Positions 1,261 through 52,843 of a DNA stretch of 64,000 nucleotides are shown here, in pieces. The stretch's first letter is position 1, and each line of letters opens with the position of its first letter. The stretch is from an uncultured Opitutaceae bacterium. Its GTDB lineage: Bacteria > Verrucomicrobiota > Verrucomicrobiia > Opitutales > Opitutaceae. The position numbers were made by a program, and so were the translations under genes. The DNA lies in the NCBI GenBank assembly GCA_964355715.1, contig CAYHEW010000020.1, positions 5,529 through 69,528 of the forward strand, given 5' to 3'. Under the pieces are notes generated by a model that did no database searches, was not told the DNA's origin, and worked only from the letters and a program-made list of their open reading frames with translations.

Positions 1261-1271
1261 GGGTTCGAACC

Positions 1272-2330: not shown

Positions 2331-2332
2331 CC

Positions 2333-3400: not shown

Positions 3401-3419
3401 AGCCGCCCACCAATCCCCG

Positions 3420-3470
3420 CTACGGTAGGCCGCCCGCTTGCGGGCGCTGCTTGGCGGGCGCACGCCGTAG
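3420..3470. repeat. GC-rich REP-like palindromic element (family B)
   Basis: Outer inverted repeat is CTACGG (3420-3425) / CCGTAG (3465-3470). It encloses the perfect palindrome CGCCCGC-TT-GCGGGCG (3431-3446). Related copies lie at 21816-21865 and 28609-28665. Confidence 0.55.
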
Positions 3471-3473
3471 AAG

Positions 3474-3542
3474 CTCTCGCGGAGCCGCGGAGGTCGCGGA
3501 GCGATTGGCGTCAACTCCGCGGCCTCCGCGCCTCCGCGAGAG
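3474..3542. repeat. GCGGAG-module hairpin repeat (family A, single module)
   Basis: Left arm ctctcgcggagccgcggaggtcgcggag, 13-nt loop, right arm ctccgcggcctccgcgcctccgcgagag. Lies between convergent 3' ends. The right arm nearly matches the 28-mer at 20191-20218. Confidence 0.75.
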
Positions 3543-3556
3543 ACAAAGGACCGAAC

Positions 3557-7814: not shown

Positions 7815-7818
<4 letters not shown>
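5821..7818 (+). CDS. gspD: type II secretion system secretin GspD
   Basis: 665 aa from ATG 5821 with a signal peptide. Has N-domain repeats and secretin-domain motifs (ILSQPNIITTHNKEGRIFVGEQRPV, VKPLIGTDGSVQLDI, SGEIIVLGGL, PIPIIGDLLG...DLVFFLRPTIL). Confidence 0.9.
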
Positions 7819-9512
<1,694 letters not shown>

Positions 9513-29758: not shown

Positions 29759-29906
29759 GGGAGCAGGGGAAGTGAAGCGCGAAAGGTCCGCCAGGACGCA
29801 CCACGAAACACGGCGCCCGGACGAATTGAGCAAATGTGCTGGCGGGGATTACGCGGCCTCATGCCTAACCTTTCCCACGTTCGGTGATCGTTGCCCCAAT
29901 CCGTCT

Positions 29907-29971
29907 CACGCGGAGGCGCAGAGGGCGCGGAGTGCGCCAGATCGCCTCCGCGCCCTCCGCGGCTCCGCGTG
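29907..29971. repeat. GCGGAG-module hairpin repeat (family A, single module)
   Basis: cacgcggaggcgcagagggcgcggagtgcg, loop, cgcctccgcgccctccgcggctccgcgtg. Preceded by caatccgtct, which resembles the left edge of the 45588 element. Confidence 0.7.
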
Positions 29972-30094
29972 CGCAAGTGAACGATGAGCGCGTGAAAACG
30001 GCGGCGGCATGATCATTCGGAGTCCGTTCTGATTTTTACTTTTGCGCAACTGTCCCGCGCCGCGTATCCACGGAACCTTCGTTCCCCGCCCCCT

Positions 30095-32068: not shown

Positions 32069-32266
32069 GTGCGACCGCGGAGTTTTTAACCACGGATTAC
32101 ACGGATTGCACGGATCCGATCCCAGACCACGATCCGGGTTAACCACTTATTCACACTGATCATCACTGATCCCAATCAGTGCTCATCAGTGTATATCAGT
32201 GGTTTTATAGGATTGGATCCGTGGTATCCGTGTAATCCGTGGTTTAAGATCGATGACCGCGGTCAC
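32069..32266. repeat. composite nested palindrome (family A: GCGG + CACGGAT + CACTGAT modules)
   Basis: Outer arms are gtgcgaccgcggag.../...gaccgcggtcac. Middle arms are aaccacggattacacggattgcacggatcc / ggatccgtggtatccgtgtaatccgtggtt. Inner arms are aaccacttattcacactgatcatcactgat / atcagtgctcatcagtgtatatcagtggtt around a ccca loop. Lies between convergent genes. The right edge overlaps the permease stop codon. Confidence 0.8.
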
Positions 32267-35737: not shown

Positions 35738-35928
35738 GACAGGAAAGGCCCTGAGTGAATGCAGGCCCCACGGCAGCGCACGCCAATTCTCTGCGCGTGG
35801 ATTGGCGTCACTCGCCCGATACCCGGCAGGTAGTCGAACTGTCCCCTCCGCCACCCGGTTGCGCGCAGCGCCGGATCGTCCGAGGTTGACCCGACAACGC
35901 ACCTCCGTGCGCCCAACCCCTCCCGCGT

Positions 35929-37320
35929 ATGATCGCTCCCCCGCCCCGTCTTGCCATGACCCTGCTGCTTGCCTCCCTGGCCGCCCTGCCTGCCGCCGGC
36001 CGCATCGGTGACCGTTTCCCGTCGGAAAAGAAGGTCGTCATCGACCCCGTGACCGGCGTGCCCTTGACGTTTTTGACGAGCACCGCCAACGGCGACTCGA
36101 AGATCTACCAGACTCACCGCCAGTGGACCGCCGACGGCCAGTGGCTCGTCTTCCGCTCCAGCCGCGTGCGCGGCCAGGCCATGGCCGTGCACGAGGAGAG
36201 CGGCGTCATCGTGCAGGTGACCGAGCACGGCTACGCCGGCATGCTCTGCCTCGCCGCCAAGTCGAACAAACTCTACTTCCTCCGCCCGCAGCTCCTCGCC
36301 GCCCCCGCCGCCGTCACCGGTGCCGAGCCGGCCACCGGCGCCGCCCCGACGGCCAAGAACGCGCGCGGTCCCTCGCAGATCATCGAGGTCGACCTGGACA
36401 AGCTGTTCGCCGACAGCGCCGCCGGCACCGTGCAGGCGGCCGAGGTCTATGAACGCGTCTGCGGCACCATCCCGCTCGCCTGGGGCGCCGGCGGCGACAT
36501 GGCACTCGACGCCGACGAGCAGGTCGCGTTCTTCCGCGTCGGCCCCGAGGAATCGGCCAAGCACCTCCCAGCCGGAACGAAGATCGAGGCGAACTTCGGT
36601 CCGCGCAACATGGGCGCCGGTCCGAACGGACTCGGGCGCATGGACCTCCGCACGGGCGAGGTCTCGTTTGTCGTCGCCGTGCCCTTCCAGATCGGCCACG
36701 TGCAGACGAATCCCTGGGTGCCAGGCGAAATCGTCTTCTGCTGGGAAACCGGCGGAAAATCGCCGCAGCGCACCTGGACCGTGCGCGGCGAGGGCACCGG
36801 GCTTCGGCCGCTCTATCCCGAGGCGGATTTCGAATGGGTCACCCACGAGGCCATCATCACGCCCGCCGAGGTGGCTATCGCCATCATGGGTCACCGCGAC
36901 CCCGACCTGACCGATGCGTGGGGCAAGTGCGGTTCGCGCGAGAAGCCCACCGGCCTCGGCATCGTCAACCTGCGTACGCGCGAGATGCGCATCGCCGGCC
37001 AGACCAAGAGCGGCAGCGGTCTCTGGCACGTCCACGGTTCGCCCGACGGACGCTGGGCTGTCGGCGACGACTTTGCCCGCAGTCTCTACCTGATCGATCG
37101 CACCAACGACGAGGTGATCCTCCTCTCCGCCGGCCACAAGGCCACCGCCGCGGACCACCCGCACCCGACCTTCAGCCCCGACGGCACGCGCATCCAGATC
37201 CAGTCCGCCATGATCTCTGAAGACGGTCGCGACATGAACATCTGCATCATCCCGGTGCCGGAAAAACTGCTCAAGCGCACCTACCCCGCGCCCGCACCGA
37301 CGGTGCTGGCGAAACCGTAA
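35929..37320 (+). CDS. secreted TolB-like beta-propeller protein, oligogalacturonide-lyase (PL22)-like
   Basis: Signal peptide, then propeller-type repeats (HRQWTADGQWLVFRS; HVHGSPDGRWAV; HPHPTFSPDGTRIQIQS). The PL22 assignment was made by eye only. Confidence 0.45.
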   Translation: MIAPPPRLAMTLLLASLAALPAAGRIGDRFPSEKKVVIDPVTGVPLTFLTSTANGDSKIYQTHRQWTADGQWLVFRSSRVRGQAMAVHEESGVIVQVTEHGYAGMLCLAAKSNKLYFLRPQLLAAPAAVTGAEPATGAAPTAKNARGPSQIIEVDLDKLFADSAAGTVQAAEVYERVCGTIPLAWGAGGDMALDADEQVAFFRVGPEESAKHLPAGTKIEANFGPRNMGAGPNGLGRMDLRTGEVSFVVAVPFQIGHVQTNPWVPGEIVFCWETGGKSPQRTWTVRGEGTGLRPLYPEADFEWVTHEAIITPAEVAIAIMGHRDPDLTDAWGKCGSREKPTGLGIVNLRTREMRIAGQTKSGSGLWHVHGSPDGRWAVGDDFARSLYLIDRTNDEVILLSAGHKATAADHPHPTFSPDGTRIQIQSAMISEDGRDMNICIIPVPEKLLKRTYPAPAPTVLAKP

Positions 37321-37358: not shown

Positions 37359-37760
37359 ATGAACCAAATTCCCCAACCCGTCCCCGGCTATCCCATCGAG
37401 CGCTGCGTAAATGCCTATCACCCCGACCGGGCCGAGCCGGTGCCCGTCGGTCATCAGTACTGGTTCGCCGACCGGAATTTCGCCGGCGGCAACACCGTAA
37501 AGCTCAGTGCGGTCCGTCCCGGCCAGCGCATGCACGAGCCGCACCGCCACGCCGAGGACGAATTCATGTTCGTCCTCGAGGGCACGGGCGAATTCACGCT
37601 CGACGACGATCGCCGCGTCGTCGGCCCCCTCACCAGCCTCTACTGCCCCTCCTGGCACCTCCACGGCCTCCGCAACTGCGGCGACACCGTCCTCAAATAC
37701 CTCGTCTTGCGGAAGGAACCCAGTCCCGCCGACCCAAGTGCATTGTCACGCGGTACGTGA
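37359..37760 (+). CDS. cupin domain protein
   Basis: 133 aa. Cupin motifs HRHAEDEFMFVLEG and YCPSWHLHGLRN. Confidence 0.75.
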   Translation: MNQIPQPVPGYPIERCVNAYHPDRAEPVPVGHQYWFADRNFAGGNTVKLSAVRPGQRMHEPHRHAEDEFMFVLEGTGEFTLDDDRRVVGPLTSLYCPSWHLHGLRNCGDTVLKYLVLRKEPSPADPSALSRGT

Positions 37761-37779
37761 CAAGACACACTTCGCCGTT

Positions 37780-38712
37780 TTGCCGTTTCCCTTGCACCAG
37801 GGCTTTTGGAGTTCGCTCGCCGTTCTGACGGTGGTGGGGCCGGTGGTGCTGTCGGCCGATGAGCATGTGGCCGTCAGCGCCAGTGCCGATGCGGCCTACA
37901 CCCAGCGCAAGTTCGACGGGCCCAAGGTGCGCACCGAGAGCTACGTCTTCATGGAGGGCACTTTTGTCGCGGGGCAGACGGTGGACCGCTCGATCGAGCG
38001 CATGCCCTTCCGCCGCGTCGCCGAGTTTCTCGCGCCGGAGCTGGCGCGGCAGCAGTTCTTCCCCGCGCCGGACGCCCAGGGCGCCGACCTGCTCATCGTG
38101 GTGCACTGGGGCACGACCACGCCGCGTACCAGCGCCGCCGAGATGCAGGGGCAGGTCACGCTCTCGCTCGACCAGTCACAGGAGCGCGCGCTCCAGAACG
38201 AGACCAAGAGCCAGACCGATGGCACCGCCGCGTGGCTGGGGGCCGGCAGCGAGATCGACCGGCAGCTTGGCTTCGAGCAGACGGAGCGCTTCACCGACAC
38301 GCTCGACAGCGACTACGCGACCGCGAACAGCGCCAAACTGCTCGGCTACACGAAGAGCCTCAAGCAGTACGAGCAGCGCATCTTCGGCAGCGCAGAGGAA
38401 ACCACGCTGCGCTCCGACCTGAGCACCGAGCGGTACTTCGTCATCCTCAAGGCCTACGACCTGAAGGCGCCGCTGGCGCCGGGCGAGAAACGCCGGGCGG
38501 TGTGGACGGCCCACCTCAACGTGCGCTCGCCGGGCAACAACTTCGGCACGGCGCTCAAGCGCATGGGCTTGGTCGGCGCCGACTATTTCGGCCGGTCCAC
38601 CGCCACCGTCGAGACCCAGCGGCCGAAGGTCCGGGAGGGTCGCGTGATCCTCGGGCCGCTCGTCATCATCGAGGATGATGCGGAAACCGACCCGGCGCCT
38701 TCCCCCCGCTAG
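37780..38712 (+). CDS. hypothetical secreted protein
   Basis: This is the C-terminal two thirds of track ORF 37507..38712; the N-terminal part overlaps the cupin gene in another frame. Candidate TTG starts at 37780 and 37792 precede the signal-like FWSSLAVLTVVGPVVLSA. Codon usage is coherent. No family recognised. Confidence 0.5.
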   Translation: MPFPLHQGFWSSLAVLTVVGPVVLSADEHVAVSASADAAYTQRKFDGPKVRTESYVFMEGTFVAGQTVDRSIERMPFRRVAEFLAPELARQQFFPAPDAQGADLLIVVHWGTTTPRTSAAEMQGQVTLSLDQSQERALQNETKSQTDGTAAWLGAGSEIDRQLGFEQTERFTDTLDSDYATANSAKLLGYTKSLKQYEQRIFGSAEETTLRSDLSTERYFVILKAYDLKAPLAPGEKRRAVWTAHLNVRSPGNNFGTALKRMGLVGADYFGRSTATVETQRPKVREGRVILGPLVIIEDDAETDPAPSPR

Positions 38713-41025: not shown

Positions 41026-43872
41026 TCAATCGGACTTTGGCGGCGGATCGTCCGGCCCGTCCGGGCTCGCGATAAGGTGACGGAACCGGTGGTAGGAGAA
41101 TCCAACCCACAGCAGCACGAGACCGAGCGCCACGAATGCGACGATGCGGTAAAGCGTCGAATCGAGGTCCACGAAGAACATCCGCGGCACACACAGCGCC
41201 AGGCCGGCGAGGCCGGTGAGCCTGTAGGCACGTTCGCGGGCGAAGAGGCCGACCACAAAGATCGCGATCGCCACCCCGCCCCACAGCACGGTCGCGTAGG
41301 GCGCCAGCGCATCGCGGCGCGCGAGGGCCACCCAGAACAGGAGACCCAGTACGCCGATGGCATGCAGCCAGCGCGCCCGCGCGCGCCAGGTCGGAGCATC
41401 GGTTTCGGGCCGGTCGCGACCCACGACCGGCTGGGCGAGCGCCACCGCCGCGAGCAGGACGACCGCGCCGGTGCCGGCCAGCCCCGGATGCACGAGCCAA
41501 CCCGCCGACCCCGCCAAAGCCAGGGCCATCCAGCCGGCTCCCGCCAGCAGCATCACCGAAGCCGCCGTGAACGCAGGACGCAAGCCCAGCCGCCAGCCCA
41601 GCACGAAGACTGCGAGCGCCTCGACGGCCACCACGGCCGGCAGGGCCGGGCCCGAGAAGTTCGCGCGCAGGGCCTGCAGGCTGAACCACGTCGCCAACCC
41701 GGTCAGCAGCCAGCCGAGGAACCGGCGCTGACGCGGCGTGGCCAGCAATTCCTGGCGGCGCGACGAAAGATGCCAGATGACCGGCAGCGCCCAGGCACCG
41801 GTGGCCGCCAGCAGCAGCCAGGTGTCGTCGACGCGCACCTTCAACGGGCGGTGCTGCACCCAGCCGAGCACCAGGCCGATCGCCGCCCCGGGCACCAGCG
41901 GCCAGATCGGCAACCGCGGACTCACCGCCAGGAGCATGAGCGCCACGCCGACCGTTGCCGCCAGCGCCTCACCCTTGGCGAGGCCGGCGAACAGCACGCG
42001 CTGCAGGACGAGGATGGCGAGGAGGGTCGTGACGAAACGCAGCAAGGGCCCCAACCCGGTGCCGTCGACGATTGCCGCCCGCAGGGTCAGGACCGCGCCG
42101 ATGGCCAACACGCCCACCAGCAAGGCCGCCTCGTTGCCCCAGAGCCACGCGATCGGATACTGGTGCACCGGAAAGACGAACATCGACAGATGCGCGGCCA
42201 GGGCGACAAAGCCCGCCGCCACCGCCGGTCCGCGCCAGCCGCGGCTGACGGCACCCGCCGCCCCGAACAGGAGCGCAACGCCCATGAAAATCGCCGGCAG
42301 CCAGCCGGCGGGCAGGTTGGCCCGCACCGCATAACCGGCCGCCACACCGAGGACCGCACCCGCCACGAGGCTGAACCCCCGCGGCGCGCCGAGCCAGCGC
42401 TGGTCGTAACCGAGCAACGCCGCCGCGAAGGTGAGGTACACCAGCAAGGGCGCTTCGGTCAGCGCCCCGCCGCCGATCAGCGAGCGGATCAGCAACAGCA
42501 GCGAGAGCGCCCAAACGACCCGGGTCATCGTACGCAGTCCGCGCACCTCGGTCACCCGCGCGGCCGTGAGCAACACGAACGCCTGCATCAGCAACGCCAG
42601 CCAGCGCAGGTGTCCGCTGTATTCCGTGATCACGCCCAGCGCAATCAGGCCGGCAGCCTTGCAGGCCACCACCGGTACCAGGGAACCCGGCTGTCTCAGC
42701 AGCCACCAGAAGGCCGCCAGGGCGAGCATCACGCCCCCGCCCCAAAACCAGAGCACCGCCAGCTGATGCATCTGCAGGATGCGCGGGGCAACCAGCAGGG
42801 CGGCGGCAATGGCGACGCTGGTGTTGAGATTCTGCAACACCCGGTCGTCGTGCTTCAGCTCCACGCCGCGCACGGCGGCATGGGCGTCCGGCAGCAGGAA
42901 AATCGTCAGCAAGATCAGCAAGGGCTGCCAGATCACCGCGGCCTCCGGCCCGGGCCGCATGGCCACCCAGACCGTGAAGCCCTGCACCACGTACACCGCA
43001 TAGGCCAAAGGCAGGGCGATGAGCATCGGGCTGCGCCAGCCCGTCATGAATCGCAGGCCGGCCGAGCCGGCGGCGAGCGCGACCGCCGACCAGAGGGAAA
43101 AATCCTCCAGCCCGCTGTAGCCGGAGAAGAACGCCGTCACAAAGCCCAGCCCCACGGCCATCCCGGCGGTGGTTTCGGAACGACGCCAGCCGGCAAAGCC
43201 CAGGACCAGAGCCACGACCACGAACTGCGCGATCGTCGCCGTCAGTGGATCGCCGATGACCTTGACCGCCGGCACCGCGTAGGCGGCAAAAGCCGCGAAA
43301 TAGAGCAGCGCGAGCCCGGCTCCGGCCACGACCGGGCCGAAACGCGGCCAACGGAGACCGAGCCGCAGGCCTGAGCCGAAGACCGCCAGCGCCACCACCA
43401 CGAGCTCGGCCAGCTTCACCACCGGCGGTGTGTTGCGTGAAACATAGATGCCGAAGAACACGACGCCGATGACGGCCAGCAATGCGCCCAGGCGCGTAGC
43501 CCACCAGGCACCCAGCCGGGCCTCGGTGTTGGCATCGCCGGTCGGCGGCCAGAGACCAAATCCCTCCAGCCAGACCCGCAACCCGCTGGGAGCCGCTGAC
43601 GACGCTTGCTTGACGGGAGCGAAGGCCGGCGCCGGAGGTGTCGCCGCCGTCAGCAGCGGCGGCAGCAAGGGCGGCTCTGCGGCGGACGCCAGTGTCGCCG
43701 GAGGGGCGACGACGGCTGCAATCCGTTCCGGTTCAACCGGTGACTCCGAGGTGGACGGCGCCGCGATGCTCGCCGTCGTCAGCCGCTCCAGCAGGCGGCG
43801 GGCATCGGCCAGCTCGGCCTCGAGCCGCCCGAGTTTGCGCTGCAGCTGTTCCAGATCGTATTCGTGCGGCAT
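41026..43872 (-). CDS. DUF2339-like large polytopic membrane protein
   Basis: 948 aa. N-terminal coiled coil (LEQLQRKLGRLEAELADARRLLERL), a Pro/Ala linker, then more than 20 hydrophobic segments. Confidence 0.7.
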   Translation of the reverse strand: MPHEYDLEQLQRKLGRLEAELADARRLLERLTTASIAAPSTSESPVEPERIAAVVAPPATLASAAEPPLLPPLLTAATPPAPAFAPVKQASSAAPSGLRVWLEGFGLWPPTGDANTEARLGAWWATRLGALLAVIGVVFFGIYVSRNTPPVVKLAELVVVALAVFGSGLRLGLRWPRFGPVVAGAGLALLYFAAFAAYAVPAVKVIGDPLTATIAQFVVVALVLGFAGWRRSETTAGMAVGLGFVTAFFSGYSGLEDFSLWSAVALAAGSAGLRFMTGWRSPMLIALPLAYAVYVVQGFTVWVAMRPGPEAAVIWQPLLILLTIFLLPDAHAAVRGVELKHDDRVLQNLNTSVAIAAALLVAPRILQMHQLAVLWFWGGGVMLALAAFWWLLRQPGSLVPVVACKAAGLIALGVITEYSGHLRWLALLMQAFVLLTAARVTEVRGLRTMTRVVWALSLLLLIRSLIGGGALTEAPLLVYLTFAAALLGYDQRWLGAPRGFSLVAGAVLGVAAGYAVRANLPAGWLPAIFMGVALLFGAAGAVSRGWRGPAVAAGFVALAAHLSMFVFPVHQYPIAWLWGNEAALLVGVLAIGAVLTLRAAIVDGTGLGPLLRFVTTLLAILVLQRVLFAGLAKGEALAATVGVALMLLAVSPRLPIWPLVPGAAIGLVLGWVQHRPLKVRVDDTWLLLAATGAWALPVIWHLSSRRQELLATPRQRRFLGWLLTGLATWFSLQALRANFSGPALPAVVAVEALAVFVLGWRLGLRPAFTAASVMLLAGAGWMALALAGSAGWLVHPGLAGTGAVVLLAAVALAQPVVGRDRPETDAPTWRARARWLHAIGVLGLLFWVALARRDALAPYATVLWGGVAIAIFVVGLFARERAYRLTGLAGLALCVPRMFFVDLDSTLYRIVAFVALGLVLLWVGFSYHRFRHLIASPDGPDDPPPKSD

Positions 43873-43900: not shown

Positions 43901-44554
43901 TCAGGTTACGTTCGAAGGCGGTGTACCCCAGCTGCGCAGGTCCCGGGCCAGGGCGCCGAAGCCATCCGGAAAATCCGCCTCCAGCCGCCGCGGGTCGCGG
44001 CGGTGCCGCTGCACCTCGCGCAGCGCGCAGCTGATCGTGAGCGGCAGCGACGGCCGGTCGGTGCCGTAGACGCGCATCTTGAGCTCGGCCCGCGTGTAGG
44101 GCACCCGTCCCCGCTCCTGTCCGCGGAGCCAGGCGGCCTCGGTGACCTGGTCGTCGCGCCCGCACAGATACCAGGCCTCGATGGCCGGCACGGCAACGCC
44201 GATGCACCGCAGGACGCGCTTGCGTCCGCGGGCCGGCGGCAGGCGCTTCACGGTCTGCCGGTAAGTGGCCCGCAGCTGGCAGAGCCGGCATTGCGGATGG
44301 AAGTAACCCGGCGCCTCGTGCCCGGCCGTGTGCACGACGCTGTCGTCCGTGTCCACCACCACAACGAGCCCGGCGGCATCCGTGTTGAAATGCAGGTGGC
44401 GCAAGACCGGCGGCAGCACCTGCGCGACATTGGGCCAGCCACGCGCGCGGAGGCCCGGGTGCACCTGGGTGATGGGGCGACCTAGAACCGACTCCACGAG
44501 CACGCGGACGGCAACCTCGTCCGCCGGGGATTCGCTGAGGAGCGCGACCTTCAT
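43901..44554 (-). CDS. Toprim-like small protein (RloB/DUF4276/AriB-like class), partner of upstream ATPase
   Basis: 217 aa from ATG 44554; the start overlaps the ATPase stop as ATGA. N-terminal strand plus acidic residues MKVALLSESPADEVAV. Hydrophobic strand ends in an acidic cluster, LVVVVDTDDS. CxxC at HPQCRLCQ. Fold assignment is by motif pattern only. Confidence 0.45.
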   Translation of the reverse strand: MKVALLSESPADEVAVRVLVESVLGRPITQVHPGLRARGWPNVAQVLPPVLRHLHFNTDAAGLVVVVDTDDSVVHTAGHEAPGYFHPQCRLCQLRATYRQTVKRLPPARGRKRVLRCIGVAVPAIEAWYLCGRDDQVTEAAWLRGQERGRVPYTRAELKMRVYGTDRPSLPLTISCALREVQRHRRDPRRLEADFPDGFGALARDLRSWGTPPSNVT

Positions 44555-45549
44555 GGTTCGTCCGGCACGCCGCCCAGAATGCCGCTGAACCACATGTCGC
44601 CGAGCGAACCCTCGCTGAGGAGACCCGGCAGGTCCGGCCGGTCGGCCAGTCGCTCGAAGCCGGCCTGGTTGCCGTGCTTGTGGGTGATGACGATCTCCTC
44701 GGGATGGTCGCGAAAAAGGTCGAGCAGGTACGGCGAGTGCGTCGTGGCGATCACCTGCACGGGCGGCCGTTTCTCCCCGAACGAGGCCGGGTAGCTCAGG
44801 CGGTACAGGTGATCGCGCACCTCGCGCAGCAGGCGCGGATGGATGCCGCGGTCGATCTCCTCGATGCAGATCACGGGCGGCGGGGTCGGATCGAAAACGA
44901 GGCTCAGCATGCCGAGCAGGTAAAGCGTGCCCTGCGAAAGATTCTCCGCGCGCACGAGCTCCGAGTCGTCGGCCAGGCGCAGCGCAAACTCGATGCTCGT
45001 GCGGCTCGGCGCGTCGAATTCGATGCGGCCGAATTCGGGGATGATGCGCACGAGTTCGGCCTGCAGCCGGGCGAAGGCCGCCGGCGCGTCCGCCTGCAGG
45101 CGGTGCAGCACGGCGGCCAGGTTGCCGCCGTTGGCGTCGAGCTCGGCGCCGTCGGCCCGCGCACCCGGTTGGTACATCGCATGATGGTCGAAATGGTAGC
45201 CGCGGATGGCGGTCAGCTGTCGGCGCAGCGCCGCGCTGCCGGATGCCCGCGTCGGCGTGATCTCCAGGAGGTTGCAGGTCTCATCATCCACGCAGCGGAG
45301 CCGCACGCGGAGGCGCGCGTAGGGTCGATTGAACTTGAAAACGAGTTCGGATGAACCGGCCGGCGACGCCCGATGCCGGCTCCGGGTGGAGTCCGGCTTC
45401 GCCACGGCGAGGTCGCGGAGTCGCAGCACTGCCTGGATCAGGCTCGTCTTGCCGCTGCCGTTGGGTCCGATGAGGAGATTGAACGGCTGCAGCGCCAGCC
45501 GCGCTCCGCGCAACGCCCTGTAATTCCGGAATGCGACCGAGGCGATCAC
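44551..45549 (-). CDS. ABC/SMC-type AAA ATPase (AAA_21-like, OLD/AbiL/PARIS-type ATPase class)
   Basis: Proposed GTG start at 45549 (VIASVAFRNYRAL...). Walker A GPNGSGKTS, signature-like NLSQGT, Walker B VICIEEIDRGIHP, H-loop IATTHSPYLLD. The track ATG at 45630 lies inside the repeat element. Confidence 0.8.
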   Translation of the reverse strand: MIASVAFRNYRALRGARLALQPFNLLIGPNGSGKTSLIQAVLRLRDLAVAKPDSTRSRHRASPAGSSELVFKFNRPYARLRVRLRCVDDETCNLLEITPTRASGSAALRRQLTAIRGYHFDHHAMYQPGARADGAELDANGGNLAAVLHRLQADAPAAFARLQAELVRIIPEFGRIEFDAPSRTSIEFALRLADDSELVRAENLSQGTLYLLGMLSLVFDPTPPPVICIEEIDRGIHPRLLREVRDHLYRLSYPASFGEKRPPVQVIATTHSPYLLDLFRDHPEEIVITHKHGNQAGFERLADRPDLPGLLSEGSLGDMWFSGILGGVPDEP

Positions 45550-45587: not shown

Positions 45588-45928
45588 GGCTCACGCGGAG
45601 ACGCGGAGAGCGCGGAGCATATTTAACCACGGATTACACGGATTTCACGGATACCAAGCTGGCGAATGGAGCGTGATAGGATGGCCACAAAAGGCACAAG
45701 AGGCACAGAAGGACCCAATCAAATTACAGGAGGAAGCAGAGGAAGCGGAGATTAGGATGCAGACCGTCTGTTTCCTCCGCTACCTCCTGTCATATGCCTT
45801 GGTCCGATTTTGTGCTTTTTGCGCCTCTTGTGGCTATACCCGTGGGCAGCATCCGCGTTTTAGCTATCCGTGTGATCCGTGAAATCCGTGGTTAAAAACT
45901 CCGCGGGCTCCGCGTCTCCGCGTGAGCC
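45588..45928. repeat. 341-bp composite nested palindrome (family A, four module types)
   Basis: Mirror-ordered arms are listed from outside in.
- ggctcacgcggagacgcggagagcgcggag / ctccgcgggctccgcgtctccgcgtgagcc
- aaccacggattacacggatttcacggata / tatccgtgtgatccgtgaaatccgtggtt
- gccacaaaaggcacaagaggcacagaaggacc / ggtccgattttgtgctttttgcgcctcttgtggc
- acaggaggaagcagaggaagcggag / ctccgctacctcctgt
The centre is near 45760. Confidence 0.85.
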
Positions 45929-45943
45929 AATCCAAGCCACGCT

Positions 45944-47038
45944 TCACTCAGCGTGCACAATCACGAGGTCGTCGAAATGCAGCCCGCAGAACACGCGGTC
46001 GCCCTCGTGGAAGGCCTCGTTCATGGCGCTTTCGTTGGCCACGAGGGCCTGGAGGCGCGTGCCCTGGTCGGTGACGAGGCGGAGCTGGTCGGTCGCACCC
46101 TGGAAGATCTCCTCCTCGATGCGGGCCTCGAAGACGTTCTCGGTCTGCGGCCGCGAACGGGAGATGTGGATCTTCTCGGGGCGGATCGAGACGAGGGCCG
46201 TCGTCGCATCGGCCGGGAGCTCGAGCGCCGAGACGGTCAACTCGAGGCCGCCGTCGAGGCGGACGTGCGCCGTGAGCCCATGACGGGCAACGACGGCGCC
46301 GCTGAGCAAATTGGCCTGGCCGATGAAGTCGGCGGCAAAGGGCGTGCGCGGGCGGTGGTAGATCTCGGTGGCGGTGCCGAGCTGCTCGATGCGGCCGCGG
46401 TTGATGACGGCGATGCGGTCGCTCATCGTCAGGGCCTCCTCCTGGTCGTGAGTGACGAAGACAAAGGTGATGCCCAGGCGGCGCTGGAGGTGCTTGAGCT
46501 CGAGCCGCATCGTGTGGCGGAGCTTGGCATCGAGGGCCGAGAGGGGCTCGTCGAGGAGGAGCACCTTGGGCCGGCAGACGATGGCACGGGCCAGCGCGAC
46601 GCGCTGGCGCTGGCCGCCGGAGAGTTGGTCGGGCTGGCGCGCGGCGACCTCGCCCAGGGAAACCATGCCGAGCGCGTCGCGGATGCGCGCCTCGGCCTCG
46701 GCGGCCGGGACCCGTTGCATGCGCAGGCCAAAGCGGACGTTCTCGCGCACGGTGAGGTGCGGAAACAGCGCGTAACTCTGGAAGACCTGGTTGACGTTGC
46801 GCCGGTACGGCGGCTGGCAGGTGACATCGGCGCCATCGAGGAGGATGGCGCCGGCATCGGGAAACTCGAAGCCGGCGAGGAGACGCAGCAGCGTCGTCTT
46901 GCCGCAGCCGGAGGGTCCAAGGAGCGTCAGGAACTCGCCGGCACGCACGGAGAGGCTGACGTCGTCGACGGCGGTAAAGTCACCGAAGCGCTTGGTCACG
47001 CCGCGGACCTCGATCATGGCGGGCCGTTCGGGACTCAT
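45944..47038 (-). CDS. potA: spermidine/putrescine ABC transporter ATP-binding protein PotA
   Basis: Walker [10 protein letters not shown], signature LSGGQRQR, Walker [16 protein letters not shown]-like C-terminus. ATG 47038 overlaps the potB stop (ATGA). Confidence 0.9.
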
Positions 47039-47928
47039 TCGTGGATCCGCGCCCCGCGGCGCTGCAGGAGCAGGTAGGTGACGGCGAACATGAGCATGAA
47101 GACGACGCCGAGCGCGGCCCCGAAGGGCCAGTCGCGGGCCTGCATGAACTGGTTCTGGATCACGTTGCCGATCATGGGCACCTTGGCCCCGCCCATCAAG
47201 TCGGTGATCGCGAACATGCCGATGGCGGGCACGAACACGAGCAGCGTGCCGGCGGCGATGCCGGGCATCGTGAGCGGGATGATGACGCTGGCGAAGGCGC
47301 GGAGCGGCCCGGCCCCGAGGTCGTAGGCCGCCTCGACCAGGGAGTGGTCGAGTTTCTCGGCGCTGCTGTAGATGGGCAGAATCATGAATGGAAGGTAGGC
47401 GTACACGAGACCGATGACCACGGCGGCGGGGGTGTACATCAGCGACAACGGCGAGGTCGTGAGCTGCATCGCCTGCAGCAGGCCGTTGAGCAGGCCCTCC
47501 TGCTTGAGGATCGTGATCCAGGCATAGGTGCGGATCAGGAAGCTGGTCCAGAACGGCACCATGACCAGGAGCAGGAGCTGGTTGCGGCGCGCCTCGGGGG
47601 CCCGCGCGATGTAATACGCCATCGGATAGCCGATGATCACGCAGATGAGCGTGGTGATGCCGGCGTACCCGATGGAGCGGACAAAGATGCGCAGGTAAAC
47701 CGGGTCGAAAACCCGCGCGTAGTTGTCGAGGGTGAAGCTGAAGACCACCCCACCCACTTCGTCGCGCTCGCAGAAGCTGTAGACGAAGAGGATGACGGTG
47801 GGGACGACGACGAAGAGCGCGAGCCAAGCCACCATCGGTGCGAGCAGCGCCCAGGCCCGCCAGCCGGGCTGGCGACGGTCGTGGCCCGTCGTGGCGGGAT
47901 GGGTGCTCTGCGCGTCGGGCGCGTTCAC
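47035..47928 (-). CDS. potB: spermidine/putrescine ABC transporter permease PotB
   Basis: 297 aa with six TM segments and a PotB-like EAA loop ([22 protein letters not shown]). The GTG start overlaps the potD stop. Confidence 0.85.
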
Positions 47929-48947
47929 TGCGCGCTCTTCAGGTCGGTGACGAGCTGGTCAATGTCGGCGGCCAGCCGACCGATGTCGCGGAAGGTCTCG
48001 AGCTTGCCCTCCTTCGGGTAGCTGGCGGGGTTCGCCAGCTCGTCGGAGCTCAGCAGCTTGCGCGCGGCGAGGTTCGGGTTGGTGTACGGGAACTTGGCCG
48101 AGATGAGCTTCGAGACCTCCGGGCGGAGGATGTAGTTGATGAGCGCGTGCGCCTCGGCCTGGTTCTTCGCATCGGCCGGGATCGCGAGCACGTCGATGAA
48201 CTGGTGAGCGCCCTCGGCGGGGAGGACGTACTGAAACTTGCGGTCCTCGTTCCAGAGGATGGCCGCCTCGCCGCTCCAGACGATGCCGAGGTCGACGTCG
48301 CCGTTGAGCAGCGCGGTCTTGGGGCTGTCGGAGTCGAAGACCTTCACGAGCTTCACCCACTCGGCCACGACCGGGCGGGCCTTCGCCAGGGTCGCCGGGC
48401 TGATGTCGTTCGCGGAGTGACCCAGCGAGTACAGGGCCCAGGTGACGAGTTCGCGGTTGTCGTTGAGGACGACGAGGCGATCCTTGTGCTGCGGCGCGAA
48501 GACGTCCTTGTAGCCGCGGATGGGGGTCTTGACCTTCTCGGTGTTGACGACGATGCCGACGGTGCCGGTCATGTAGGGCACGGTGTACTGGCCGGCCGGG
48601 TCGTGCGGGAGCTTCATCAGCGCCGGGTCGATGTTGCCGAGGTTGGTGAGCTTGGCGAGGTCGAGTGGGGCGAGCATCTTGCGCCGGATCATGACCTCGG
48701 CGGTGTAGTCGGAGGGCTGCACGAGGTCGTACGCCGAGCCGCCAGCGACGAGCTTGGAGAGCAGTTCCTCGTTCGAGGCGTAGGTCTCGAAGTTGACCTT
48801 GATGCCGGTCTCCGCGGTGAAGCCGTCGAGGACCTCCTGCGGGATGTATTCGGACCAGCCGAAGAGGTTGAGTTCACCCTTGGCCAGCAGGCCGGCGGAG
48901 CCGATCAGGGCGGACAAGGCGACGAGGGCGGTTTTGAGCAGGTTCAT
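47925..48947 (-). CDS. potD: spermidine/putrescine-binding periplasmic protein PotD
   Basis: 340 aa with a signal peptide. PotD-like blocks: [41 protein letters not shown], and IVWSGEA. Confidence 0.85.
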
Positions 48948-48959
48948 GGTGGGAGGGGA

Positions 48960-49784
48960 TCAGCGCGGGTTCAGTTTTTTCAGGTAGGCGGAGAAAAGCA
49001 CGAAGGCCACGGTCGCCAAAATGAAGACCGCGGACAGCGCGTTGAGCATCGGGTTAAGCCCAACGCGTGCCAACCCATACACCTGAATCGGCAAGGTGGT
49101 GGAGGCGGCGCTGCGGATGAAATAGGTCACGATCAGCTCGTCCATGGACAGCGTGAAGGCCATGAGCGCGCCGGCCACGATGGCGGGCCGCAGGCTGGGG
49201 ATGATGACGAACCAGAAGGCCTTGAATGGCGTCGCCCCGAGGTCGAGCGCCGCCTCCTCGAGGGCCGGGTCCAGGCCCTGGAGCCGCGCCTGGACGGCGA
49301 CCAGCACGAACGGAAAGCAGAACGTGACGTGGCCGATGATGACGCTCGTGAATCCGAGGCGCATCCCGGCCGAGGCGAAGAGGATAAGCAGGCTGATGCC
49401 CATCAGGATCTCCGGCATGACCATCGGGATGGCCACGAGCGTCTGGATGCCGCGGGCGAACCGGTAACGGTAGCGATGGAGCAGCCAGGCGCCGGCAGTG
49501 CCGAGGACGACCGACAGGGCGGTGCTGACCCCGGCGATGATGAGGCTGTTCTTGGCCGCCTTGATCAGCGGCCCGTTGGCCCAGAGGCGGGCGTACCAGT
49601 CGAGGGTGAAACCCTCCCAGACGATGTTCAGACGGGAGGAGTTGAACGAATAGACGACGAGGACCGCGATCGGCAGGTAAAGGAACCCCAACCCGAGCAG
49701 GGTCCAGACGCCCAGCGCGCGATTGAGCACGGTGATGCCGGAGGGCAGAAAGGGGCGCGACGAGGTCGGGGACGACGAAGCCAA
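48960..49784 (-). CDS. potC: spermidine/putrescine ABC transporter permease PotC
   Basis: PotC-like LYLPIAVLVVYSFNSSR...WEGFTLDWY and EAA loop EEAALDLGATPFKAFWFVIIP. The track start is TTG 49784. GTG 49730 gives a more typical N-terminus. Confidence 0.85.
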   Translation of the reverse strand: MASSSPTSSRPFLPSGITVLNRALGVWTLLGLGFLYLPIAVLVVYSFNSSRLNIVWEGFTLDWYARLWANGPLIKAAKNSLIIAGVSTALSVVLGTAGAWLLHRYRYRFARGIQTLVAIPMVMPEILMGISLLILFASAGMRLGFTSVIIGHVTFCFPFVLVAVQARLQGLDPALEEAALDLGATPFKAFWFVIIPSLRPAIVAGALMAFTLSMDELIVTYFIRSAASTTLPIQVYGLARVGLNPMLNALSAVFILATVAFVLFSAYLKKLNPR

Positions 49785-49852: not shown

Positions 49853-52843
49853 TTACTTCCCGCCGCCGAGGAGCTTGTTGAGCAGGTCGCCGGCGCCGGA
49901 CTTTTCCAGGGCGAGGGCGGTGAGCGTGCGGTTGATTTCGCTCGTATCGGGCGCCCGCAGGGTGCCGCCGATGCGCAGCGGGAGATTGCAACCGGTGTAG
50001 CCAAGCACGTCCGGCTCACCCTCGAGCGTGCCGAGATATTTCAGCAGGTGCGCCGCCCGCCCGCGGGCCCGCAGCTTGAATTCCATGGCGAGCGCCCCAT
50101 CGAGAATCGACGCGCCCGGCTGGACCGCGGCCCGGCCGTCCCCGGAAAGGCGCAACTCGGGCGAGATGAGGGTAAACTCCTCGAGCAGGGCGGTGCGGGC
50201 ATCATCGCGCGTGACCTTCACGCTAAGCTGGTCGTACGGAATTGCCGCGAGGAGCCGGGAAACCTCTGATACCGCCTGCGCACGGTTGGCGATGTCGGCA
50301 TATTCCTTCTTGCCGGTGACGGATCCCAGCAGGCTGCCGACCGCGGCCACGCCGGCGGCGATGCGGCTGGTGGACTCGGCCTTGCTCGCCACGTTGACGG
50401 GCAGGCCGTGAAAGGTACCCCCCTTGCTGGTAAGTTGGACGGCACCGTGGGCTGACCCGAGGACCTCCGGCAGGGTCGCCGCGCGACCGGTCAGGTGGCT
50501 GAAAAGGTCGAAGCGGCCGTCAACCGTGGCCGCCTGCCCGGAGCCGAGCGAGGCGAACAGCGGGCGCGGGTTGAAGTCGTGCACGCTGAGGTCACCGTCG
50601 AGTACGTACGGCTGGTTGGAGGCGGGTTCGAAGGCGAGGCCTCCCGCCATCTTGGCCGTCCCCTCCTGCCCCAGCCCCAGCTGGATCTCCGGGACTTTCA
50701 GTGAACCGGGCTCGAGCCGCACGGTGCCCGTGACGTTGCTCACCTCGAACTGGTCGAGGAAATGGAGCCGTTGCAGCGCCAGCTCGATCCGGCCACCGAA
50801 GCCGGCCCAGAACGGCTGGGGTTCGGTGCCACCGCCCGCCGGCGTCGAGGCCGCCTCGGACGTCGCGGCGGTGATCGCGGCCAGCACCTGAACATCCTCG
50901 AGAAAAACCTCGCGACTCGTGACCCGGGCCTCGACCTGATGACTGTCGCCCTGGGCCTGCAATGATCCGGCGACGGTCAGATCGGACTGACGGGATCGGG
51001 CCGCTTGGCTGATGACGAGCGGAAGATTGAATGCGGTCCGACCATCGGCCGCGGTGTCGGCGCGGAGATCGGCGGAGATTGTCGGCAGGCTCTCACCCGT
51101 CGAAACGGCCAACTCGTCAAAGCGCAGGTTGGCCTGCAATTCCCGGCTGCTACCCAGGCTGACCGTGAAGTCACCCTGCCCGCGACCGCCCGTGAGGTTG
51201 GCGGTGCCCTGCAGGATCGGTTGCTGCAGCAGAGCCGGAAGCAGTGCGCTCCAGCGGCCGGTGGCCTTGATGGGCTGGTCGGCGCCGGCGCGCCGGCCGG
51301 CCTTGGCCGCAAGCGTCAGCCAGGGCGTCGCACCCAGACCGAAGCGCAGCGCGGACAGGTCCACCTGCCAGCCGAGGGGCGAATACTCCGCGCTGGCCTC
51401 GGCTTCGACATCGAGATTGGCGAGCAACGGCCGCTGGTGGTCGGCCAGGGCCAGGCCGTCGAGGCGCAGCGGCGTGCGGGTGCGCACGACTAGGCCGCCG
51501 CCGGCGGCACCAGCGGTGAGTTCGCCGCGGATCGCCCCGCCCGTGAGCACGTAGGGTTGCGCAAAGGGCGCCAGCCAGCGCACCGGCAGGTCCTGGAGGC
51601 GGATGACGACGAGGTCGGCCGACGGATTGGCGACCTTGAGCTCGCCCGTGCGCGGCTTGAATTCGAAGGCCTGCTGCGATTGGACAGCGAGGACGGGCTC
51701 CGGGCGGCTGACATTGAGGAGGAGGCGATCGACGCGCACGGCGCCCTGATGGAGCGTGACGTCGAATTCGCTGAACAGGCCGACGACGCCGACGACTTCG
51801 AGCTCCGGACGGAAGATGCCGAGGCGGCTGGCCGACGACTGGAGCCGGCCCGCGGCGTGAACGACATCGAAGGCCGTGTCCGACTCGAACATGCCCGCAC
51901 CCACGGCCTCGAAGGCCGGGAGCAGCCGCCCGAGGGCGAACGGTGCGAGATCGGTGTCGCGCACATCGAGCTTCCACACGCCGCCGAAGCGGGCGCTCTC
52001 GGCCGGGTAGTTGGCCTGGAGGTCGACGAGGCGCTTGCCGAGCGACTGCACGTTGAGGGTGTAGTTTTCTCCGCCGGGCACGCGCGCGGCGATGACCTCG
52101 GCGGTGAGCTGTACATCCGACGACAGCGCGGGTCCGGCCGCCCGGGCATTAAAACGGGCGCCGAGGCGGGTGAAGGTCCGGGGCGTGTCCATGGTCGCCT
52201 CGAAGCGTCCATTGACCTCGAGCGAACGGACCGGCGAGTCCGCCCCGGCGAGCGCGAAGCGGGCGGCAAAGGTGAAGGCGCCTTCCCGGCCGCCGGCGAG
52301 TCCCCCACCCTGCACGGTGACCTGGGCGCGCGTGGCCGGTTGGCCGGGCGGGCCGGGCAAGATGACCTCGCCGGCGAGGTCCACCCCGTCGACCGCGAGG
52401 TCGGCCGGGAGGCGCAGGTCGGTGAAGATGCCGCGGAAAACCAAGGCGACCGCAGTGGCCGCAGCCTCGGGCGTCGCCGGTGCGGCGCCGGCGGCTGGCG
52501 TCGCGCCGTTCACCGCCGTGAGGTCGAGGATCCAACCGCGGGCGACGAGGCGCCGGATGACGAGCCGGTCGCGGCCGATGGCGTCGATGACCGCGAGATC
52601 GGCCGTCGCGGCCGGCAGGTTCAGGACGGCGCCACCGGACTGGAAGCGCACGGACTCGAGCTGCACCTGCTGCAGGCCCGCGGCCACGCGGCCGAGGGTG
52701 ACCTGGTAACCCGGTTGGTTGGCCAGGGCGCGGCGCGCGGCCCAGGTCTGGACGGCCGGCGTGAAGGCCAGGAGCGTGGCGATCACCAACAACCCGGCAA
52801 GGGTGACCAAGCCGATCAGGACGAAGCGGAGGAGCCTATTCAT
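49853..52843 (-). CDS. AsmA/TamB-like outer-membrane biogenesis protein
   Basis: 996 aa. N-terminal anchor LRFVLIGLVTLAGLLVIATLLAF, a long beta-rich repetitive body, and a C-terminal AsmA-like motif NLPLRIGGTLRAPD. Confidence 0.6.
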   Translation of the reverse strand: MNRLLRFVLIGLVTLAGLLVIATLLAFTPAVQTWAARRALANQPGYQVTLGRVAAGLQQVQLESVRFQSGGAVLNLPAATADLAVIDAIGRDRLVIRRLVARGWILDLTAVNGATPAAGAAPATPEAAATAVALVFRGIFTDLRLPADLAVDGVDLAGEVILPGPPGQPATRAQVTVQGGGLAGGREGAFTFAARFALAGADSPVRSLEVNGRFEATMDTPRTFTRLGARFNARAAGPALSSDVQLTAEVIAARVPGGENYTLNVQSLGKRLVDLQANYPAESARFGGVWKLDVRDTDLAPFALGRLLPAFEAVGAGMFESDTAFDVVHAAGRLQSSASRLGIFRPELEVVGVVGLFSEFDVTLHQGAVRVDRLLLNVSRPEPVLAVQSQQAFEFKPRTGELKVANPSADLVVIRLQDLPVRWLAPFAQPYVLTGGAIRGELTAGAAGGGLVVRTRTPLRLDGLALADHQRPLLANLDVEAEASAEYSPLGWQVDLSALRFGLGATPWLTLAAKAGRRAGADQPIKATGRWSALLPALLQQPILQGTANLTGGRGQGDFTVSLGSSRELQANLRFDELAVSTGESLPTISADLRADTAADGRTAFNLPLVISQAARSRQSDLTVAGSLQAQGDSHQVEARVTSREVFLEDVQVLAAITAATSEAASTPAGGGTEPQPFWAGFGGRIELALQRLHFLDQFEVSNVTGTVRLEPGSLKVPEIQLGLGQEGTAKMAGGLAFEPASNQPYVLDGDLSVHDFNPRPLFASLGSGQAATVDGRFDLFSHLTGRAATLPEVLGSAHGAVQLTSKGGTFHGLPVNVASKAESTSRIAAGVAAVGSLLGSVTGKKEYADIANRAQAVSEVSRLLAAIPYDQLSVKVTRDDARTALLEEFTLISPELRLSGDGRAAVQPGASILDGALAMEFKLRARGRAAHLLKYLGTLEGEPDVLGYTGCNLPLRIGGTLRAPDTSEINRTLTALALEKSGAGDLLNKLLGGGK

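Follow-up and report, generated by a model that had tools for sequence, protein, structure and literature searches.

An ABC-type ATPase and Toprim-like protein pair with the inheritance of a core module in Opitutaceae

Modules that combine an ATP-binding cassette (ABC) type ATPase with a Toprim domain are nowadays almost automatically annotated as phage defence. The two-gene pair considered here, carried by a 64,000-nucleotide (nt) stretch from an uncultured Opitutaceae bacterium (assembly GCA_964355715.1, contig CAYHEW010000020.1, positions 5,529 to 69,528; hereafter the window), is a clear bacterial case of this architecture behaving like a core gene. Among the closest described systems, HEC-01 (Hma-embedded candidate 01) is an ABC ATPase and TOPRIM pair embedded in Hma systems, and did not protect from any phage used in the assays (bioRxiv 2024.01.29.577857). 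PARIS, whose nuclease AriB is a DUF4435 protein, is the mechanistic paradigm for a split ATPase/Toprim pair (PMC11464382), and classes 1-4 of the OLD proteins have all been linked to defence (PMC10568477). Cran1, or Class 5 OLD, forms a clade that occurs in Sulfolobales only and mirrors the species tree; this 'atypical conservation' prompted its study, which revealed an essential cell-cycle nickase without antiviral activity (PMC12796447). The Toprim domain itself is defined by a three-layer α/β core with a Glu on the β1-α1 loop and a DxD motif after β3, and DUF4276 and RloB are counted among its members (PMC12065111).

In the window, the upstream gene of the pair starts with GTG and encodes an ATPase of 332 residues, and the downstream gene starts with ATG and encodes a protein of 217 residues (N-terminus MKVALLSESPADE), in which VVVVDTDDS occupies residues 64-72 and CRLC residues 89-92 (coordinates in Table 1). 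The 332-residue frame was preferred over a longer open reading frame (ORF) reaching 45630, because the homologues of the ATPase (326-363 residues) agree in an N-terminal consensus, VIASVAFRNF.... Both ORFs are real genes and not chance products of a GC-rich genome, given their database homologues (1974 and 2309 for the two genes), the AAA_21 match of the ATPase and the purifying selection acting on them. A first-pass annotation, made from the letters of the window, had pointed out the two proteins, their motifs, the ATGA overlap of their genes and a native GC content, and all of these were recovered; the GC content is 0.68-0.72 in the cassette and 0.64-0.74 in the neighbouring genes.

The two genes are kept together well beyond the window. 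Among the 80 genome loci that best match the small protein, the small gene is intact in all 80, and 78 have an ATPase match on the same strand directly upstream; in 74 of these it is intact over its full length, in three it is truncated by the end of a contig and in one (L075) it is partial. The two loci with no ATPase match are L027, which is cut by the contig edge, and L017, the only one that truly lacks an upstream ATPase; the gene is directly upstream in 77 of the 78 informative Opitutaceae loci. The 4-nt ATGA overlap is found in 33 of 78 loci, with gaps of at most 253 nt in the others. More distant clusters keep the same arrangement: all 11 representatives whose context was inspected, including a metagenome-assembled genome (MAG) of Planctomycetota, have an AAA_21 ATPase of 322-355 residues immediately upstream, mostly with the 4-nt overlap. 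The small protein and the ATPase also diverge together (Mantel r = 0.70), and the two very probably form a physical complex. As for L017, a Verrucomicrobia MAG, its small gene (4196-4849) is intact and the upstream position is taken by a divergently transcribed 914-residue gene on the minus strand (1257-4001); either the ATPase has been relocated elsewhere or the small protein is able to exist alone.

The distribution of the pair is that of a chromosomal gene of one bacterial family with outlying relatives. The small gene occurs in at least 159 species genomes of a one-genome-per-species collection. The best 80 all belong to Opitutaceae or Opitutales, with identities of 67-95%, and include the named genera Opitutus, Cephaloticoccus, Lacunisphaera, Nibricoccus, Oleiharenicola, Ereboglobus and Didemnitutus; Rariglobus appears among the ATPase matches. 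On the same strand, aas follows downstream in 61 loci, mostly 100-250 nt away and often fused to an LplT-like major facilitator superfamily (MFS) domain, and the potCDBA operon lies upstream in about 23 loci. Median identities to the window are 72% (small protein), 67% (PotA), 65% (Aas) and 54% (ATPase). Correlating these identity-to-window values between the small protein and its neighbours was uninformative, as they saturate near 70%, and this approach was replaced by an all-against-all Mantel test, in which distances correlate with those of Aas at r = 0.62 for the small protein and r = 0.72 for the ATPase (p = 0.001, 55 genomes). Both genes are under purifying selection, with dN/dS values against the closest relative (L001) of 0.086 for the small protein and 0.149 for the ATPase, and 0.04-0.10 for the neighbours. 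No relative of the small protein was found in 72,556 plasmids or 50,697 phage records, nor on IMG/VR contigs in a scan with a single pattern.

The surroundings of the pair agree with this picture. In the window, its neighbours are potCDBA (a spermidine/putrescine transporter operon at 45944-49784, directly upstream of the pair), a DUF2339 gene, aas, transporters and transketolase. Within 15 kb on either side of the pair, the window holds ABC transporter parts, a resistance-nodulation-division (RND) efflux system and transketolase, and no defence or mobile genes. In distant relatives, the neighbours are mostly housekeeping genes as well (triosephosphate isomerase, MetH, phosphoglucose isomerase, uracil-DNA glycosylase, Hfq and thymidylate kinase); the exceptions are a ParE/helix-turn-helix (HTH) pair, an integrase 7 kb off and an SNF2 gene 6 kb off. 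Relatives also exist in other, mostly uncultured, bacteria, including the Planctomycetota MAG, which was the one representative out of 30 that an exact cluster look-up could place taxonomically. Taken together, the profile is that of a vertically inherited core gene and not of a defence-island gene. The notion of a mobile or variable defence cassette is disfavoured by the synteny in 77 of 78 loci, by the co-divergence with Aas and by the absence from the plasmids, phages and viral contigs searched. The first-pass annotation had held that conservation next to housekeeping genes, together with a clear metabolic role, would speak against defence; the former half is what the relatives show, with a single stable chromosomal place beside housekeeping genes.

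Close coupling of two genes by a 4-nt overlap could also be the mark of a selfish addiction module resembling toxin-antitoxin (TA) systems, in which the nuclease would be the toxin and the ATPase its neutraliser, and which would persist because its loss is lethal. The Pfam description of AAA_21 reads 'putative AbiEii toxin, Type IV TA system', and one relative is adjacent to the ParE/HTH pair. Addiction modules, however, are patchy, multicopy and tied to mobile elements, whereas this pair occupies one syntenic place per locus examined, is vertically inherited and is absent from the plasmids searched. Moreover, both genes are under purifying selection over family-level divergence, and L017 retains the putative toxin with no ATPase next to it, so that an addiction module is a very unlikely explanation of the locus.

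Two features of the immediate flanks vary among relatives. The DUF2339 membrane-protein gene of the window (41026-43872), which separates the pair from aas, is found there only in the five closest relatives (L001-L005), and is therefore a later insertion into an older adjacency of the small gene and aas. The LplT-like MFS fusion of Aas is N-terminal, as in a 1190-residue ORF of L017.

From the perspective of its family, the ATPase is the better defined of the two proteins. It matches AAA_21 at 1.1e-27 (98.3 bits, cutoff 27) and AAA_15 at 1.6e-16 (61.4 bits, cutoff 32.1) in Pfam. In PADLOC, the HEC-01A model PDLC04183 ranks first (1.3e-40, 137.7 bits), five further HEC-01A models lie below 1e-33, and PDC-M07A, AriA, Mad3, AbiLi, PtuA and Old follow at lower ranks. 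The AriA models are matched at 2.6e-27 and 4.6e-19, where the 304-position model looks like a generic profile of the AAA_21 type, the AbiLi model at 3.2e-18, and the Old model at no better than 4e-12, its best stretch being the N-terminus. An AlphaFold2 (AF2) model built with 44 homologues in the alignment (predicted local distance difference test score, pLDDT, 91.7; predicted template modelling score, pTM, 0.90) retrieves from the PDB, through Foldseek, PtuA from Septu and from retron Ec78/Eco7, the heads of SMC proteins, Rad50 and a Thermus OLD protein (TsOLD), with E-values of 1e-11 to 1e-9 and query-normalised TM-scores (TMq) of 0.5-0.6. Because Pfam, the AF2 model and its Foldseek neighbours agree, the ATPase is assigned as a compact ABC-type head of the Rad50/SMC/PtuA/OLD kind, without a long coiled coil and with its catalytic motifs intact.

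Conservation within the ATPase is uneven. Per-position values in the catalytic blocks are 0.63-0.91, mostly at least 0.7, while residues 51-200 score 0.28-0.61 except for one 10-residue block (141-150, 0.78); across Opitutaceae, conservation is found in the P-loop, in the stretch that runs from signature to H-loop, and in the C-terminal tail. The middle segment is a candidate for a sensing or partner-specific surface. An analogue of the RecF/RecR pair, likewise an ABC ATPase plus a Toprim protein with a Zn site, was considered and is left neither favoured nor dismissed; the ATPase matches the RecF model with its N-terminal P-loop region only, and the domain order of RecR differs. In the complete genome of Oleiharenicola sp. 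Vm1 (L038, 6950-8003), the ATPase ends with about 20 residues reading ...GNPASATFGIAASSAARRTRH in place of the conserved tail ...EGSLGDMWFSGILGGVP, which suggests a frameshift or a sequencing error near the 3' end.

Table 1. Features of the gene pair and of the adjoining palindrome, in window coordinates
Feature	Position	Strand	Remarks
Gene of the 217-residue Toprim-like protein	43901..44554	minus	Distant kin of HEC-01B, Mad4, RloB and DUF4276
Acidic motif at the end of β1, E8-S-P-A-D12-E13 (Toprim Glu position)	44516..44533	minus	After strand 2-7; S9 and D12 in at least 95%
D68-T-D70-D71 (Toprim DxD position)	44342..44353	minus	After strand 62-68; D68 invariant
H75...H79...C89-x-x-C92	44279..44332	minus	Putative structural Zn site between β3 and the next helix
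E126-A-W128, in motif P-x-I-E-A-W	44171..44179	minus	After strand 116-122; third acidic position; E126 in 129/132
C-terminal helical domain, residues 139-209	43928..44140	minus	Conserved E139, K159, Y163 and F195-P-x-G-F199
ATGA stop/start overlap	44551-44554	minus	TGA stop of the ATPase gene within ATG-A of the small gene; translational coupling
Gene of the ABC-type (AAA_21/AAA_15) ATPase	44551..45549	minus	ORF and translation, Pfam, PADLOC, AF2 model, Foldseek
Walker A / P-loop GPNGSGKTS, residues 28-36	45442..45468	minus	G28 and G31-S36 invariant in 44 homologues
Signature-like LSQGT, residues 204-208	44926..44940	minus	Q206 and G207 invariant, S205 nearly so (44 homologues)
Walker B and D-loop VICIEEID, residues 226-233	44851..44874	minus	E230 and D233 invariant, C228 and E231 nearly so
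H-loop TTHSP, residues 269-273	44731..44745	minus	T269, H271, S272 and P273 invariant
Fast-evolving middle segment, residues 51-200	44950..45399	minus	β-sheet and helical inserts of the ABC head
Nested palindrome, 341 bp	45588-45928		Between potA and the ATPase gene; outer arms 45588-45617 / 45899-45928
Inner arms of the palindrome	45637-45652 / 45875-45890 and 45692-45710 / 45817-45835		

The small protein matches no family of Pfam (E <= 1), NCBIfam or PHROG. A profile search in a 50%-identity library recovered 634 clusters at E <= 1e-3, 271 of them at E <= 1e-30, and nearly all are full-length proteins of about 210 residues. Conservation was assessed in 132 representatives of such clusters, whose identity to the query is 37-69%. 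E8, D68 and W128 are invariant among them, and S9, D12, G39, R90, P123, E126, E139, K159, Y163 and F195-P-x-G-F199 are nearly so, which bears out the conserved acidic residues expected in the first pass; position 70 is an Asp in 95 representatives and an Asn in 37. The histidines and cysteines of the HHCC pattern are found in 89 of 132, with the two Cys almost always retained or lost jointly, and are missing from the DUF4276 consensus. They probably stabilise an insertion between β3 and the following helix.

In its AF2 model (pLDDT 90, pTM 0.87), the small protein is built from β1 (2-7), a helix (10-24), a vestigial β2, a helix (42-57), β3 (62-68), helices 77-80 and 90-102, β4 (116-122), a helix (125-130) and then a C-terminal helical bundle (139-147, 155-163, 170-182, 189-194 and 199-209). 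Judged by motif and by the order of secondary structure elements only, this corresponds to the Toprim definition, for which Aravind 1998 is reportedly also a source, with the invariant E8 after β1 and D68-x-D/N70 after β3. When the 132 members were scanned individually, HEC-01B was matched by 45 and 43 of them (two models, best 8e-6) and Mad4 by 29 (best 6e-6); the partners PDC-M38B, PDC-M31B and PDC-M25B were also matched, and AbiLii was matched by 2 (E >= 0.025). In Pfam, ten members matched RloB (best 1.2e-4) and eight DUF4276 (best 3e-3). Chance would yield about 13 random matches at E <= 0.1, spread over 5027 models, while the matches obtained concentrate, far above this number, on the partners of ABC ATPases, and are therefore not due to chance. 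In the BFVD, Foldseek placed an RloB-like phage protein second (probability 0.97, E = 3e-3, TM 0.38). Comparison by hhalign of the family profile with single DUF4276 proteins and with a DUF4276 alignment was not significant (E 0.15-0.6); E8/E9, D68/D74 and E126/E122 fall in register in it, with E126 opposite HEFEAL, which is suggestive only. Profiles A1 and A2 found only chance matches among PDB chains (BmdC and ARF1).

Sequence and model thus point to a probable Toprim-like metal-dependent nuclease fold, and the family is concluded to be a distinct, undescribed branch with an added HHCC site. The Toprim-like fold proposed in the first-pass annotation is supported by the Glu after β1, the DxD after β3, the acidic residue after β4 and the family-level matches, and finds no significant backing in the Foldseek search of the PDB or in the DUF4276 hhalign. 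A different reading of the same protein is that it is no nuclease at all, and serves as a Toprim-derived or unrelated α/β Zn-binding adaptor, or as some other hydrolase, which the ATPase would regulate in a non-nucleolytic process. Consistent with this are the lack of a significant match to solved Toprim structures, to the DUF4276 profile, to Pfam or to NCBIfam, the Asn at the second DxD position in 37 of 132 representatives, and the HHCC site and conserved C-terminal helical domain, both foreign to DUF4276. Nevertheless, E8, D12, D68, E126, E139 and K159 are invariant or nearly so in divergent members, as is typical of a metal-dependent active site, and the recurrent RloB, DUF4276, HEC-01B and Mad4 matches and the RloB-like structural match also speak against this reading; a non-nuclease role is accordingly judged improbable.

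How the pair relates to the described systems can be stated system by system, HEC-01 being the nearest. Both consist of two genes, for an ABC ATPase with its TOPRIM-like partner of about 200 residues, the ATPase of the window scores best on HEC-01A models (1e-40 to 1e-34), and its partner has acidic residues at the metal-binding positions described by Payne et al. for HEC-01B, as judged by motif position only. HEC-01, however, resides in Hma or restriction-modification-like defence loci and spreads horizontally, whereas the window pair stands alone among housekeeping genes and is inherited vertically. Its ATPase is about 70 residues shorter than the HEC-01A profiles (332 vs about 400), and its small protein carries the HHCC motif. 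With a match to the ATPase model, an adjacent partner that falls short of a significant HEC-01B match and no Hma or defence locus around them, PADLOC-type rules would probably not call the pair HEC-01. The scan with PADLOC and Pfam advised in the first pass gave HEC-01A and AAA_21/AAA_15 for the ATPase, and for the partner no Pfam match and an HEC-01B score below significance.

Pairs of AAA_21 and DUF4276 proteins (including Mad3/Mad4 of MADS) and the RloA/RloB or AbiLi/AbiLii pairs have the same gene order, overlap and sizes (about 330-370 plus about 215 residues), but their ATPases are only about 25% identical to that of the window, and they are found on plasmids and inside restriction-modification, MADS or Hma loci. 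Membership of DUF4276 (PF14103) or RloB (PF13707) was rejected, as the window protein has no match to them at E <= 1. MADS was rejected because NCBIfam MAD3 reaches 90.8 bits against a cutoff of 420, Mad4 falls short for the partner, and no methyltransferase or other MADS gene lies in the window neighbourhood. AbiL was rejected as well, since the AbiLi match of the ATPase is not accompanied by any AbiLii match of the window protein. An example of the plasmid-borne kind is found on pMC64A of Aeromonas media (L086, NZ_CP047963.1, 110780-117871), where genes for an SNF2-related protein, an AAA ATPase, a DUF4276 protein and a DNA methyltransferase follow one another, with a WYL protein and an IS66 transposase at the flanks. 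This locus resembles an Hma-type system in which a HEC-01-type pair is embedded, in contrast to the context seen in Opitutaceae.

PARIS shares with the window a split ABC ATPase and Toprim nuclease encoded by adjacent genes, the ATPase of the window matches AriA models, and its logic, in which the ATPase sequesters the nuclease, is the best-understood mechanistic model (PMC11464382). Yet AriB is a 35-kDa DUF4435 protein and AriA is a 55-kDa protein whose coiled-coil inserts build a hexamer, and PARIS is carried by phages and satellites, whereas the window pair was not found among the phages, plasmids and viral contigs searched. DUF4435/AriB was matched neither by the window protein nor among the listed family-level matches of its 132 relatives, and membership of PARIS was rejected for want of a DUF4435 partner. 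Septu and retron Ec78 supply, with PtuA, the best Foldseek matches of the ATPase (E about 1e-11, TMq 0.53-0.59), and PtuA also holds a partner nuclease; that partner, PtuB, belongs to the HNH nucleases and is not Toprim-like, PtuA contains additional inserts for oligomerisation, and sequence identity is 13-17%. Fused OLD proteins of Classes 1-3 were rejected because the window has two separate genes, no Toprim_OLD Pfam match and no helicase or reverse transcriptase near the pair. Hence, of the split OLD/AbiL/PARIS-like module named in the first-pass annotation, the ABC ATPase and Toprim-like architecture remains, while the models assign the pair to neither PARIS, AbiL, MADS nor fused OLD. What is new is the undescribed effector family and its core-gene behaviour across a bacterial family; the ATPase and Toprim-like kind as such was already known.

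The relative with the same evolutionary signature is Cran1, also a lineage-restricted ATPase and Toprim relative in a conserved non-defence neighbourhood. It is a single fused archaeal polypeptide with a canonical OLD Toprim domain, whereas the Opitutaceae pair consists of separate bacterial genes, has a more divergent Toprim-like part and is known from sequence alone. Because Opitutaceae inherit the pair vertically, as a core-like module of the chromosome, the preferred reading, for which the chances are put at slightly less than even, is a fixed cellular function in nucleic-acid surveillance, maintenance or processing, carried out by a domesticated relative of defence systems as in the case of Cran1. 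A more specific form of it can be advanced only tentatively, namely that the pair is a bacterial counterpart of Cran1, a split pair drawn from the OLD / HEC-01 / DUF4276 defence stock, with an effector of an undescribed HHCC family, and domesticated as a core, possibly essential, factor that maintains the genome or RNA in Opitutaceae, and perhaps in bacteria of the Planctomycetes-Verrucomicrobia-Chlamydiae (PVC) group more broadly.

Several points weigh against the preferred reading, in its molecular part as well as in the cellular role. To our knowledge, every characterised bacterial relative of the ATPase and Toprim architecture is a defence system. The role proposed is general, with no specific housekeeping process that could be named, and the functional reading of the family draws on sequence, models and analogy. 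The figure of at least 159 species counts carriers and is not a fraction of Opitutaceae. On the side of the small protein, the window sequence itself matches in PADLOC only HEC-01B (E = 0.022, 12.8 bits) and Mad4 (E = 0.038); Foldseek against the PDB brought no Toprim structure into its top 50 and returned generic flavodoxin-like folds (lumazine synthase, EIIA of the phosphotransferase system; best E = 6e-3, TM about 0.3); and hhalign against a 35-sequence DUF4276 alignment, narrow and almost wholly gammaproteobacterial, was not significant (E = 0.21). L017 is the one small gene among 78 informative loci with no ATPase beside it. Finally, a fast-evolving ATPase insert next to a conserved effector is also what would be expected of an immune sensor in an arms race.

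This last point leads to the defence alternative, according to which the pair is an abortive-infection system against phages or mobile genetic elements, of the HEC-01, PARIS or OLD kind, that was fixed early in Opitutaceae and is held by phage pressure. In such a system, the ATPase insert would sense a phage cue and free the Toprim-like nuclease, tRNA or DNA would be cut, and growth would stop. The top models of the ATPase are all defence or candidate-defence (HEC-01A at 1e-40, PDC-M07A, AriA, Mad3, AbiLi), family members of the small protein match HEC-01B, Mad4 and AbiLii, and the structural neighbours of the ATPase are PtuA of Septu and of retron Ec78. Plasmid relatives of the ATPase (25% identity) stand beside DUF4276 inside an SNF2 and methyltransferase (Hma-like) system, a ParE/HTH pair adjoins one distant relative and an integrase lies 7 kb from another, and the ATPase changes more quickly than the neighbouring genes do, chiefly within the insert. 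Against this alternative, at least 159 species share a stable position and vertical inheritance of the pair, the housekeeping genes on its flanks are less conserved than the effector, and the pair is absent from the plasmids, phages and viral contigs searched. Neither the window nor most of the 11 distant contexts contain a defence island, the HEC-01 that was tested gave no protection, and an intact small gene without an adjacent ATPase, as in L017, would be odd for a toxic effector. Defence is thus a serious contender, although a somewhat doubtful one.

Under the preferred reading of a cellular role, the two genes would encode one machine, made of the ABC-type ATPase and a translationally coupled, Toprim-like metal-dependent phosphodiesterase whose probable metal or catalytic residues are E8, D68-x-D70 and E126. 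The ATPase, as ATP-sandwich dimers or oligomers, would bind its Toprim-like partner and gate the metal-dependent cleavage of DNA or RNA by it. If PARIS, Septu, Gabija and OLD are taken as a guide, ATP binding or hydrolysis would either restrain the nuclease, or free and activate it upon a nucleic-acid or protein cue, for which the variable insert of the ATPase is a candidate sensing surface. Possible substrates are DNA, nicked as by GajA and Cran1, and tRNA or other RNA, as for AriB, P2 Old and RNase M5.

If a cellular role is true, the Cran1 finding would extend from archaea to bacteria, catalogues of defence systems (HEC-01, DUF4276 pairs) would contain housekeeping relatives, and a function would be gained for a so far uncharacterised family, which numbers at least 634 clusters at 50% identity. 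Should defence be true, the pair would represent an unusual immune module fixed throughout the history of a bacterial family. Either way, the small protein merits a family definition of its own.

Some further observations concern the neighbours of the pair and its expression. In a relative whose small protein is about 45% identical to that of the window (L093/L094, 5869-7935), PAD_porph and CN_hydrolase genes lie directly upstream of the pair, and probably encode agmatine deiminase and N-carbamoylputrescine amidase, respectively. Polyamine-related genes are thus upstream in two divergent lineages, which may be coincidence or old synteny. A functional link of the pair to aas or to polyamine genes, suggested by the synteny, was considered and rejected, since it has no mechanistic rationale and distant relatives have other neighbours. 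In Opitutaceae bacterium EW11 (L036), soil metatranscriptome contigs (runs X23 and X24) match perfectly at 7730-7925 and 8516-8765, and overlap a portion of the ATPase gene, the small gene at its 3' end and the spacer toward aas. This hints at low-level transcription that reads on toward aas, and DNA carry-over would give the same matches; metatranscriptomes from the habitat of the window itself contained no words of the locus.

Near the locus, several long ORFs (49853-52843, 29906-32146, 35710-37164 and 37507-38712) lack a Pfam match at E <= 1e-5. Among them is that of a 996-residue protein upstream of the pot operon, which is conserved in relatives with 27-86% identity. Promoter, terminator and Rfam scans of the locus returned only hairpin artefacts, which come from the palindrome that lies beside the pair. 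This palindrome, which the first-pass annotation had taken as one boundary of the cassette, is a real 341-bp element, GC-poor (0.59 vs 0.69), present in a single copy in the window and matching no Rfam family. It has no counterpart in the two closest relatives, L001 and L002, where the spacer between potA and the ATPase gene is about 60 nt, and it is therefore a recent insertion and neither part of the cassette nor its boundary. By appearance, it looks like a recently inserted hairpin element or one resembling a miniature inverted-repeat transposable element (MITE).

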